Source: Candidatus Latescibacterota bacterium
Lineage (GTDB): Bacteria; Latescibacterota; UBA2968; UBA8231
Direction: 5' to 3'
Length of the DNA stretch: 64,000 nt
Assembly (NCBI GenBank): GCA_965248355.1
Contig: OZ252098.1
Span: 4,768,001-4,832,000 of the forward strand
The translations under genes were made by a program, and so were the position numbers. How positions within the stretch are numbered: the first letter of the stretch is position 1; every line of letters begins with the position of its first letter. The notes beneath the pieces were generated by a model that worked only from the letters and a program-made list of their open reading frames with translations, searched no databases and was not told where the DNA came from. Shown piece after piece: positions 5,860-12,474 of the stretch.

Positions 5860-8802
5860 ATGGAGGTGCTGCATAAGGTTCGGCCGGTGCTCGCTCTCGC
5901 GATCCTGGCCCTGGCGCTGGGCGCCCAACCCGCCCTGGCCAGCTACGGCAAGATCTCGGGGCGGATCACCGACGCTTCAGGAGAGCCCCTGATCGGGGCC
6001 CGGGTGAGCACCGAGGTCGGCGGCTTCCGTCTGGGTACGGTCACCGACGACGAGGGACGCTACTTCATCCTCAACGTCCCGCCCGGGCGCTACGCCGTCG
6101 AGGCTGGCCACGTAGGCCACCAGACCGTGCAGAAGACAGATGTCCTCGTGCGGCTGGACTTGACGACCACCGTTGACTTCTCCCTGGCCACCGAGGCGAT
6201 CAAGGGCCCCGTGGTCGTCGTGCTCGCCGAGCGCCCCCCGGTGGAGAAGAGCCTGACCTCGACGCGTCAGACCATCGACCGGAGCGAGATCAACAACACC
6301 ATGCCGGTCTCCGACCTGCAGGACCTGATCAACACCACCCCCAGTTCCTTCCGCGGCTTCATCCGAGGGGGCCGCAAGGCGGACACCAAGGTCCTCCTGG
6401 ACGGCATCGACGTCTCCGACAGCTATTTCCGGGCCGGCGAGGGCAACGGCGTCTACTCGCCCTACACCGCGACCCACCGCTCCGTGGGGAGTGAGTTCAC
6501 CTCGGTCGGGGTCAACGCTTCCTCGGTGCAGAGCCTGGACGTGATCTCCGGGACCTTCAACGCCGAGTACGACGCGGCCACCGCCGGCATCGTCAACGTC
6601 GTCTCGCGGGAGGGCGGGGGGGAGCTCGAGACCCAGGTGTTCTACCGCACCGGCCCCGGCACCAAGAACGCCGGGCCCGACGTCTACAACGACCTCGCCA
6701 GGTACCTCGAGGAGCGCGCCGCCCTGGCGAACGCCGACGACGACGCTCAGAAGGCCAAGGCGGAGTACTACTCCTTCGACGAGGGCACCATCGACGAGGT
6801 CGGGTACGGAGGCGGCCTGCGCCAGGAGCTGGAACTGTCCGTGGGCGGCCCCCTCACCAGTCGGGGCAACTTCTTCTTCACCGGCCGCTTCCTCGACGAC
6901 CGGGGGAACTTCTCCAACGCCCTGAACCGCGGCGCCCGTCTCTCCCTCAAGGCCACCCACCGCGCCACCGATGCCCTCAAGATCACCGCCAACCTGTCCG
7001 TCGACGACGGGGGCCGGCTCGGCGGCTGGGTCAACCGCGACTTCAACGGGCGCTTCAAGTTCTACCCGCAGGGGGCGATCGGAAACAAGAAGCTCGGGGT
7101 CCTGGCCTACCTGGGCCTGAGCCACACCCTGTCGGAGCGGACGATCATCGACGTCAAGCTGTCCCAGCTCAACCGGACGAGCGAGTTCGGGTTCTCCGAC
7201 GACAACGGAGACGGCGTTTCCACCCTGGAGGAGGGCGGGGACTTCATCCGCATCGACTCGGCCGAGGAGTCCGAGCTCTACCTGGGCGTCGGGGGCAGCG
7301 CCGTGGACGCCGACGGCAACTTCACCTTCTTCACCTCCGACCCCGGCAACGAGCGGTTCTTCACCCTGGGTTTCTCGAACAACCAGTACCGGTTCGGCCA
7401 GCCGGGATTCTATTATGAAGAGCTCAAGCGCAACGTCACCCAGTTCAAGGCCGATCTCACCCACCAGTGGAACTTCCACCACCAGTTGAAGACCGGCCTG
7501 CTCTACCGGCGCCACACCCTGGACCAGTACCAGCAGCGCACCCAGGTCAAGGTCATCTACGACCCGAACTTCCCCTTCGAGACGACCGCGTACACCCTCA
7601 ATCCGGCGGAGACCGCCCTCTACGTGCAGGACAAGATCGAGTACGAGGGGGTCATCGTGAACGCCGGCGTGCGCCTCGACATGTTCAACCCGGGGGCCCA
7701 GGTCCTGGCCGACTTCTTCAACCCCTCGATGCAGGACACGCTGTCCAACGGCCAGATCACGCGCAAGGCGCGCCTCGGCGAAGACGCCGACACCAAGATG
7801 TTCTGGCAGCCGCGGCTCGGCATTTCCCACCCCATCTCCGAGACGGCGGCCATGCACTACTCGTGGGGCAAGTTCTACACGCCGCCGCCGTTCTCGCAGC
7901 TCTACGACGAGTACGGCACCTTCGCCAACCCGTCGCTGCCGAACGTGCGCGACGTGAACGCGGACCCGCCCGAGGCCACGGCGTACGAGATGGGCCTGCA
8001 GTGGGGCTTCCATCCCGACTACCTCGTGGACGTCACCGCCTACTACCGCGACATCGAGAACTACGGGCGCACCGGTTACGCCATAAATCCCGATCCCGCG
8101 GCCGGCGCCGGCTTCGGCTCCTACACCTTCACCACGAGCTTCGGCTACGCCGACGCCCGCGGCATCGAGCTCTCTCTGTTCCGCCGCCCGGGCAAGATGG
8201 TCTCGGGGCGTCTGAACTACGCCTTCAGCTACATCAAGGCCTCGGGCGGGGCCGGCCGCCTGACCCCGTTCCCGGACAAGACGAGCTACGCCTATGCCGC
8301 CGGCGACACGGAGATCCCGCTGGAGGACCGCCAGACCTTCAACACGGTGGAGCGCAACGTGCAGGGAGGGAACAATTCCCTCACCACCGGCTTCGACCGC
8401 GCCCACCAGTTGAGCCTGTCCCTGCTGGCGCGCCTGCCCTATGGACTCGACCTGTCGCTGATCCAGAGCCTGGAGAGCGGTTTCCTCTACCGGCTGACCC
8501 AGACCTCGGAGGATCCGCGCGAGCGCGCCACCGAGCGGGGACCGGCCAACGCGAGCACCGACCTGCGCCTCACCCGGGGGCTGGAGCTGCTCGGGGCCAA
8601 TGCGGGCGTCTTCCTGGAGGTCACCAACCTGCTGGACCGGGAGAACGTGCTGGCCTTCGACAATTCCACGATCCCCAGCCAGGTCCTGTGGGAGGAGGAG
8701 CAGGATCCGACCGGGGAGTTGAACCGCGCCTTCAGCGGCCAGTCGATCCCGCTGTACGGCCCGCCGCGCCAGATCGGCCTCGGCGTGAGCATCGGCTTCT
8801 GA
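5860..8802 (+). CDS. TonB-dependent receptor with N-terminal carboxypeptidase-regulatory-like domain
   Basis: Signal peptide; GKISGRITD..GEPLIGA; plug motifs IRGGR and SGTFNAEY...GIVNV; barrel motifs YVQDKIE, PRLGISHPI; C-terminal PRQIGLGVSIGF. Confidence 0.9.
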   Translation: MEVLHKVRPVLALAILALALGAQPALASYGKISGRITDASGEPLIGARVSTEVGGFRLGTVTDDEGRYFILNVPPGRYAVEAGHVGHQTVQKTDVLVRLDLTTTVDFSLATEAIKGPVVVVLAERPPVEKSLTSTRQTIDRSEINNTMPVSDLQDLINTTPSSFRGFIRGGRKADTKVLLDGIDVSDSYFRAGEGNGVYSPYTATHRSVGSEFTSVGVNASSVQSLDVISGTFNAEYDAATAGIVNVVSREGGGELETQVFYRTGPGTKNAGPDVYNDLARYLEERAALANADDDAQKAKAEYYSFDEGTIDEVGYGGGLRQELELSVGGPLTSRGNFFFTGRFLDDRGNFSNALNRGARLSLKATHRATDALKITANLSVDDGGRLGGWVNRDFNGRFKFYPQGAIGNKKLGVLAYLGLSHTLSERTIIDVKLSQLNRTSEFGFSDDNGDGVSTLEEGGDFIRIDSAEESELYLGVGGSAVDADGNFTFFTSDPGNERFFTLGFSNNQYRFGQPGFYYEELKRNVTQFKADLTHQWNFHHQLKTGLLYRRHTLDQYQQRTQVKVIYDPNFPFETTAYTLNPAETALYVQDKIEYEGVIVNAGVRLDMFNPGAQVLADFFNPSMQDTLSNGQITRKARLGEDADTKMFWQPRLGISHPISETAAMHYSWGKFYTPPPFSQLYDEYGTFANPSLPNVRDVNADPPEATAYEMGLQWGFHPDYLVDVTAYYRDIENYGRTGYAINPDPAAGAGFGSYTFTTSFGYADARGIELSLFRRPGKMVSGRLNYAFSYIKASGGAGRLTPFPDKTSYAYAAGDTEIPLEDRQTFNTVERNVQGGNNSLTTGFDRAHQLSLSLLARLPYGLDLSLIQSLESGFLYRLTQTSEDPRERATERGPANASTDLRLTRGLELLGANAGVFLEVTNLLDRENVLAFDNSTIPSQVLWEEEQDPTGELNRAFSGQSIPLYGPPRQIGLGVSIGF

Positions 8803-8848
8803 GAATGCGCTCATGGAACGGATCAGGGATTCTATCGGAGGAAATACG

Positions 8849-12405: not shown

Positions 12406-12433
12406 CCTCCGCCGCAAGGCGAGACGGACCACT

Positions 12434-12474
12434 GCCGGAGGCCTCGGGGGCGACGTTCCCCCGGGGCCTCCGGC
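12434..12474. terminator. GC-rich hairpin between convergent genes, likely terminator
   Basis: GCCGGAGGCCTCGGGGG-N7-CCCCCGGGGCCTCCGGC: 17-bp stem with one G-U pair. Confidence 0.7.

Follow-up and report, generated by a model that had tools for sequence, protein, structure and literature searches.

A conserved three-gene unit of TonB-dependent receptor, tail-tagged partner and PorV/PorQ-family barrel in Latescibacterota and other phyla

SusD, the companion of the TonB-dependent transporter (TBDT) SusC in the polysaccharide utilisation loci (PULs) of Bacteroidia, has a helical fold. In type IX secretion (the T9SS), PorZ keeps its tail on the barrel PorQ, the binding of uncleaved tails to barrels of this kind is established, and type B cargo are matched by cognate PorP/SprF barrels (PMC10202324; papers given here by PMC number are cited from excerpts). 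In the barrel assembly machinery (BAM) of Bacteroidota, BamG, which is homologous to FadL/PorV, lies packed against BamA, and its outer loops hold BamH (PMC12578637). Here we describe a three-gene locus from a Candidatus Latescibacterota genome, G000, which consists of a single 5.5-Mb contig, C1 (completeness 95.7%). The window, i.e. the whole 64,000-nucleotide stretch analysed, corresponds to G000:C1:4768001-4832000. Genes for a receptor, a partner and a PorV/PorQ-family barrel, in that order, are called a triad below. The triad is real, highly conserved and present in several phyla. We estimate a probability of about 0.6 that its partner is exported via SprA, is held, uncleaved, on the private barrel and serves in substrate capture for the cognate receptor.

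The three genes are found on the + strand at 5860-8802 (receptor, open reading frame of 980 aa), 8849-11329 (partner, 826 aa) and 11362-12405 (barrel, 347 aa). The gaps between them are exactly 46 nt and 32 nt, and a GGAGG-type ribosome-binding site precedes the ATG of each gene, which confirms the co-directional run noticed earlier in a reading of the letters and open reading frames (the sequence-only reading). All three products begin with hydrophobic N-termini with A-x-A ends, judged by eye to be putative signal peptides; these regions are modelled as low-confidence helices in both folded proteins, receptor and partner. No cysteine is present in any of the three proteins, and thus none is a lipoprotein. 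Receptor and small barrel both terminate in Phe.

The first gene codes for a TBDT, as had been assigned before. The protein is built of signal peptide, CarboxypepD_reg N-terminal domain, plug and a 22-stranded barrel with long extracellular loops, the strands being counted from the strand list of the model. Among its Pfam matches CarboxypepD_reg is above the cut-off while Plug and OMP_b-brl_3 are below. The model has a confident TBDT fold (predicted local distance difference test, pLDDT, 88.5). The best Foldseek matches among 373 at E<=0.001 are YddB (6ofr, E 1.5e-32) and FusA (4zgv), and the identity to TBDTs of this type is 11-13%. We also considered SusC. This candidate is ruled out by the TIGR04056 (SusC/RagA) score of 49.6 bits against a cut-off of 368, reached in the N-terminal part alone, and by the closest fold. 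For energisation, the source genome has one TonB_C match above cut-off, and its ExbB/TolQ- and ExbD/TolR-like genes score below the equivalog cut-offs.

The partner matches no Pfam family. Its model (pLDDT 90.7, predicted template modelling score 0.89) shows a beta-supersandwich, a fibronectin-III (FN3)-like domain and a tail. The supersandwich (8921-10348, + strand; residues 25-500) resembles the N-terminal domains, themselves non-catalytic, of GH15/65/94/116, as well as the periplasmic domain of YidC. Superposition on 9ju0 gives a VIA-align Z of 16.2 (root-mean-square deviation 3.6, 257 aligned residues, 6% identity), and YidC follows with Z 11.7. An ESM Atlas search with residues 25-505 returned unnamed clusters alone. 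The FN3-like domain carries an insertion (10376-10858, +; residues about 510-670) and belongs to the scaffold common to the superfamily. A T9SS-type C-terminal domain (CTD) of distinct subtype is found at 11036-11326 (+; residues about 730-826). Foldseek aligns this tail with PorZ (5m11) at probability 1.00 over 119 columns with 19% identity; among PDB sequences the partner profile finds nothing but the tail of PorU (E 0.012) and an FN3 domain (E 0.33). The tail reaches 155 bits on a profile of the triad subtype versus 28.8 on a generic tail profile. The tail resembles the T9SS type A sorting domain, of which it may be a divergent subtype, and matches PorZ in structure.

The fold raises the possibility of an enzyme. 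In the same tethered unit, the partner could be a lyase, hydrolase or epimerase-like protein of a new family, with its active site in the supersandwich, which cuts polymer at the surface for the receptor. Mutarotase-like proteins, PL26 and GH174 have this fold too (Z 9.8-11.6), conservation within the partner family reaches at least 90% at many Asp, Arg, Asn, Trp and Tyr positions, and the module is present on secreted proteins with a generic tail too. However, we regard an enzyme as unlikely. The best structural matches are non-catalytic, the alignments to matches of the GH15/65/94/116 type being 230-276 residues long, and the (alpha/alpha)6 catalytic barrel of these enzymes is absent from the model, in which the helices are short and scattered (the longest has 17 residues). 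No His of the supersandwich reaches 90% conservation within the family, the residues conserved throughout the superfamily are mostly structural with little polar conservation, and real enzymes are encoded separately beside many triads. In our preferred reading, capture for the receptor, this domain would bind its substrate rather than act on it.

The third protein is matched by NF033709 (PorV/PorQ family) with 167.7 bits (cut-off 90) over positions 2-325 of 326, and its profile matches the solved PorV structure 6h3i with E 3.5e-19. The equivalog models give 45.8 bits of 250 for PorV and 78.4 of 220 for PorQ, both below cut-off; other PorV-family paralogues of the source genome reach 160.5 and 162.4, still below the equivalog cut-offs. 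A branch with approximate likelihood-ratio support (SH-aLRT) of 90 separates 70 triad barrels from 7 non-triad barrels, in a quick tree where the non-triad rows are long branches. By sequence, the barrel is a member of a triad-specific PorV/PorQ subfamily and is neither a PorV nor a PorQ orthologue. It had been called a dedicated PorV rather than a single-copy housekeeping protein, and this is borne out by the source genome, which has 14 PorV-family matches, a PorU-PorV pair apart from the triad, and another triad that brings a barrel of its own. No type B CTD or PorP/SprF model of NCBIfam or Pfam is matched at E<=0.1 by partner or barrel.

Among 8000 candidates, 97 homologues of the partner are found at 33-93% identity. 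A set of 150 loci combines the top 80 among 229 confirmed genome loci with 70 distinct ones of the best 80 of 356 metagenome matches. They lack independence (L050 and L051, at least, are one contig), and the four closest to the window show 93-94% identity. According to the record titles they come from Latescibacterota, Gemmatimonadota, KSB1/Zhuqueibacterota, Calditrichota, Kryptonia and Bacteroidota. The receptor is found directly upstream in 117 of the 150 loci, with 32 cut at a contig edge and one, the fragment L075, without it, i.e. in 117/118 with the flank present. The barrel is directly downstream in 139 (10 at an edge; L198, with a truncated partner and a flank of 408 nt, lacks it), i.e. 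in 139/140. Given these loci, chance or artefact is rejected as an origin of the triad, and the conservation in other genomes on which the sequence-only reading depended is found across several phyla.

The phylogenies of the three genes are congruent, a check that had likewise been proposed. For the trees, 53 of 86 complete triads were kept below 92% identity and the window was added. These 54 orthologous triads have 34-38 of 51 splits in common, with 1-3 strong conflicts per pair of trees, and Mantel r is 0.88-0.97, with permutations reaching at most 0.23. For 56 paralogous triads, the trees give r 0.80-0.86. At the level of sequence this shows inheritance as a block, not physical contact. 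Covariation between the proteins (mutual information with average product correction; 54 orthologous and 109 mixed triads) gives top scores mostly at or near the maxima of shuffled pairs, a result that is uninformative in either direction at an effective depth of just ~36-86. No fusion is found among 8000 scored candidates of 1447-4130 aa, which is weak evidence.

A second triad (L223) is found in the source genome at G000:C1:4121189-4128701, with proteins of 1046, 1086 and 346 aa and a gene for a tetratricopeptide repeat (TPR) protein after it. Its partner is 23-33% identical to the window partner in aligned parts and passes TIGR04183 with 25.6 bits. With a support of 100, its barrel clusters with those of single triads in the genomes G035, G041 and G042, which suggests an old housekeeping copy. 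Exactly two genes of the source genome contain the full partner scaffold, both in triads. On the triad-tail profile their products score 155 and 109 bits and other proteins of the genome at most 62, a partly circular comparison as the profile was built from triads. On the generic tail profile, 128 proteins of the genome have a median of 94 bits, and the two triad partners 29 and 35. A different arrangement is seen at L222 (G000:C1:3557879-3561287), where an FlgD-tailed protein is followed by two PorV/PorQ-family barrels; this layout is PorZ-PorQ-like, with no match to a PorZ model.

The partner-family profile reaches 4774 clusters (50% identity) at E<=0.001, mostly via the scaffold common to the superfamily, i.e. 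the last sandwich strand, the FN3 domain and the tail. Pfam assigns no family to any of 40 distant members. With the broader profile A3 (48 rows), at least 97 of 140 genomes of the source phylum match at E<=1e-40, a lower bound given 8 scored candidates per genome, and the superfamily is present in 100 of the 201 genomes sampled from the G041 phylum. By alignment and tail score, IALB_0487 of the cultured species Ignavibacterium album is also a member. We sampled 60 regions of five genomes with 69 superfamily genes. The listed genes of G035 (25) and G040 (6) are covered completely, those of G041 to 4/5, and G042 and G043 in part; the fifth G041 gene, L067, is likewise a triad, and six matches lie outside the listed genes. 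Full triads account for 59 of the 69 genes (25/25 in G035, 6/6 in G040, 4/4 in G041, 7/11 and 17/23 in the others), one of them in the order receptor-barrel-partner. Recurrence of the triad, within the source genome and in these five, is therewith documented. The remaining ten genes comprise eight in two tandem arrays, one orphan and one with a receptor followed by a contig edge. Each array (L127 and L141-L142, in G043 and G042) has four partner genes with no adjacent receptor or barrel; these are possibly exchangeable partners for a receptor encoded elsewhere. In G035 and G040 (L091-L118), 24 matches to a family of small outer-membrane barrels of ~240 aa are found, mostly just upstream of the receptor; this family has no match in the 150 loci of the window family or in the source genome.

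These counts also bear on a second explanation, in which the barrel is only a transient shuttle, PorU cleaves the partner, and the product is anchored to lipopolysaccharide or released, with a loose, haemophore-like contact to the receptor. PorV is such a shuttle in Bacteroidia (PMC10202324). PorU is present in the source genome with 556.7 bits (cut-off 420), adjoining the best PorV match of the genome and away from the triads, and orphan and tandem partner genes exist. Nevertheless this explanation is quite improbable, as a private barrel for each partner, 25 times in G035, would be wasteful compared with 128 generic cargo sharing the housekeeping PorV, and the PorQ score of the window's barrel (78 bits) exceeds its PorV score (46 bits), although both are below cut-off. 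Retention of the uncleaved tail on the private barrel is the form that we prefer.

SprA (TIGR04189) is above cut-off in all five carrier genomes examined, and lies at G000:C1:427-433 kb in the source genome. The 1946-aa gene after the housekeeping PorV had also been considered as SprA, which is wrong; the product is M6-like. GldM is matched in 0/5 carriers including the source genome (a very divergent homologue may have escaped), and GldN in 0/5 with a model that has no positive control match; GldK and GldL were not searched. The GldM model is functional: it is above cut-off in 49 of the 201 genomes of the G041 phylum, none of them among the 100 carriers, a split that probably follows lineage and does not amount to a statistical test. 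Five carriers with SprA and no GldM or GldN match make a motor-less T9SS possible. A check for core T9SS genes had been proposed in the sequence-only reading; SprA, PorU and PorV are in place, while GldM and GldN are missing from the matches. One run of the source genome (L224, G000:C1:233211-240083) contains genes for a PorV-like barrel, a 1097-aa TPR protein and ExbB-like and ExbD-like proteins, and is a candidate for an alternative energiser of secretion; a near-identical copy of its barrel is found at C1:909331. A third explanation, in which the receptor is a TonB-dependent export channel like Oar and secretes its own partner or assembles it on the private barrel, as a self-contained display system (adhesin or surface layer) of lineages without the GldLM motor, could appeal to the requirement of Oar for protease secretion in Myxococcus xanthus (PMC6434023), to the missing GldM/GldN matches and to the YddB/FusA-like fold, but is very improbable in view of SprA in every carrier examined, of 128 generic-tail proteins that need a receptor-independent export route, of sugar genes and LacI-type regulators beside many triads, and of partners that are multi-domain proteins of 609-1195 aa.

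In the capture reading, the three genes would constitute one outer-membrane uptake unit. All three proteins would cross the inner membrane by Sec, receptor and small barrel would insert into the outer membrane, and the partner would be exported through SprA by its T9SS-type tail. Because this tail is of the special subtype, it would be handed to the co-encoded PorV/PorQ-family barrel and would stay bound to it uncleaved, like PorZ on PorQ. Located beside or over the mouth of the receptor, the supersandwich would bind substrate and deliver it for TonB-driven import. The tethered partner would thereby do the job of SusD without a lipid anchor, and paralogous triads would serve different substrates.

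Several observations weigh against this picture. We infer the contacts among the triad proteins from gene content, linkage and folds, and block inheritance alone would also produce both linkage and congruent trees. TIGR04183 gives the partner tail 16.2 bits, under its cut-off of 23; of the earlier label of a T9SS-tagged orphan, the Pfam-dark protein and a PorZ-like tail fold stand, whereas the tag is to be read as a divergent subtype. The closest folds of the receptor are YddB and FusA, a ferredoxin receptor, not SusC. With no GldM or GldN found, the T9SS in its canonical, energised form appears to be missing, so that the route of export is putative. Ten of the 69 paralogues lack one or both triad partners. 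Moreover, five homologues (P0042, P0099, P0112, P0114 and P0116) bear the N-terminal module of the partner on a generic tail, so that it may also function without a triad; some of these proteins have additional Ig and propeller domains. Finally, SusD is found in 50 of the 100 carriers of the 201-genome sample, with a median of 0.5 matches versus 8 in GldM genomes. SusD (PF07980) has 0 matches in the whole source genome, with a working positive control, and single weak matches in 27 of 140 genomes of its phylum. The absence of SusD claimed earlier is accordingly true of the locus and the source genome but not of the system, and there is no strict replacement of SusD.

A wider view is possible, to which we give somewhat less than even odds. 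The triad would be a 'utilisome' that arose a second time, as an independent invention, and would be the principal uptake architecture in several phyla that have been little studied, with the partner exported by a motor-less SprA-based T9SS. It would be a stable three-protein importer in which a private PorV-like barrel takes the place of the lipid anchor of the lid protein, and an SprA-based T9SS without the GldLM/GldKN motor and ring would be an ancestral or alternative form.

The neighbourhood of the triad was examined for its possible substrate. A DUF6785/DUF6784 multi-pass membrane protein is encoded 234 nt upstream (3700-5625, +). It is associated, not core: homologues are found in 43 of the 150 loci, and 27 matches occur in the source genome, often near triads. 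This protein is a candidate inner-membrane transporter of the system; a literature search found no paper containing the term DUF6785/DUF6784. A heparinase II/III-like (polysaccharide-lyase-type) protein at 1192-3408 on the - strand is also associated and not core, being single-copy in the source genome with homologues in 15/150 loci of three lineages. A methionine-synthase-like gene recurs in 15/150 loci in another clade. Our best guess for the substrate of the window triad is an acidic (uronic or sulfated) glycan, and this guess is soft because the neighbour context is mixed.

Downstream, 12479-17241 is occupied by a convergent class-V aminotransferase gene, which recurs in 17/150 loci, and by genes for what we take, from their motifs, to be a small membrane protein, an SSS-like symporter, a sulfotransferase-like and a YbaK-like protein. 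Between triad and aminotransferase gene lies a GC-rich hairpin with a 17-bp stem (12434-12474, no strand assigned), with -52.8 kcal/mol for an 80-nt stretch (z -4.0) and 0/200 shuffles equally stable. The strong hairpin said to close the run is thus present as a stable stem, but a canonical terminator or a repeat is unsupported: it has no U-run, intrinsic-terminator calling did not return it, the flanking genes are convergent and its sequence is no genome-wide repeat in the source genome. Further on, at 17306-20680 of the window, a lower-GC stretch (GC 0.63) encodes a 1124-aa M9 collagenase-like protein with a Big_1 domain and a generic T9SS tail.

For the paralogous triads, 101 neighbours were picked and one of them, a barrel fragment, was dropped. 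By manual reading, with no background control, 18 of the 100 neighbours are sugar-related. They are regulators (four LacI, RpiR, propeller/sigma54), enzymes and modules (amylase, GH10, GH16, two CBM20, CBM9, BNR, sulfatase, a PL26-like domain) as well as UxuA, Gfo/Idh and a BadF-type kinase. At E<=1e-8, peptidase families are absent from the 100.

Hints of expression come from two sources. Both junctions of the triad genes are spanned by contigs of relatives from sponge metatranscriptomes, a weak hint, as these contigs were chosen for containing this stretch and are without strand or level, and one run, in which coverage is even over all 30 bins, may include DNA. In the proteome of Melioribacter roseus, MROS_0286 (TonB receptor) and MROS_0285 (hypothetical) are the two top scorers in one sample and MROS_0284 ranks eleventh, with exponentially modified protein abundance indices of about 0.9-1.8 for the three versus 0.07-0.28 for MROS_0283 (PMC5492636). 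Judged from annotation and abundance alone, this pattern fits a triad. The 'sus operon' of M. roseus was also considered as a mis-annotated triad and dropped, as MROS_0760 is annotated SusD/RagB.

If the capture reading is true, it would account for polymer capture in Latescibacterota, KSB1/Zhuqueibacterota, Calditrichota, Kryptonia and Ignavibacteria, and would give a function to the Pfam-dark superfamily, whose 4774 clusters have part of the scaffold in common. The triad would be a marker for predicting utilisation loci where SusC/SusD searches yield little, and the role of PorV-like barrels would be extended from secretion shuttles to permanent adaptors of transporters. Since no examined carrier has a canonical GldM, a question of T9SS energetics is raised. 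The model is testable because the cultured I. album encodes a superfamily member.

No account of the triad was found in a full-text literature search, with subscription journals mostly outside its coverage, which agrees with the earlier statement that such a three-part importer is not known to be experimentally described. The excerpts of PMC5317091, PMC4454575, PMC4737851 and PMC3534657 contain no description of it. The xylan locus Rmar_1070-1073 of Rhodothermus, a receptor followed by a tail-bearing hypothetical protein, is tabulated without comment in the excerpt of PMC6987092.

A comparison with SusC/SusD (RagA/RagB) shows that in both a CarboxypepD_reg TBDT is co-encoded with a dedicated surface partner, multiplied per genome, with sugar enzymes and regulators beside. 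The triad receptor, however, is far below the SusC cut-off and nearer to the YddB/FusA fold, the third gene is obligatory, the source genome has no SusD match, and the triad partner is all-beta, cysteine-free and tail-tagged, while SusD is a lipoprotein (PMC6987092). PorZ-PorQ and PorU-PorV of the Porphyromonas gingivalis T9SS attachment complex likewise combine a CTD protein with a PorV-family barrel, and the triad tail is PorZ-like. They are single housekeeping secretion parts without a transporter, whereas the triad pair is tied to a TBDT and repeated, and the source genome has its own PorU-PorV elsewhere. Type B CTD/PorP-SprF systems (SprB-SprF, PG1035-PorP) resemble the triad in clustering cargo with a private PorV-like barrel, a proposed surface anchor (PMC10202324); they differ in having no TBDT, and the triad has a type A-like tail and a PorV/PorQ barrel. 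In BamA-BamG-BamH a FadL/PorV-like barrel stands against a larger barrel with a surface protein on the loops, the geometry that we propose for the triad, but this is a biogenesis machine and not an importer, and a T9SS tail is unmentioned in the excerpt (PMC12578637). Oar of M. xanthus, YddB and FusA are large-loop TonB-dependent barrels like the receptor, and YddB and FusA are its best structural matches. We know of no link of any of them to a CTD protein with a PorV-like barrel. Compared with these systems, the triad is apparently an unpublished form of lidded TonB importer, made of known parts in a new combination.

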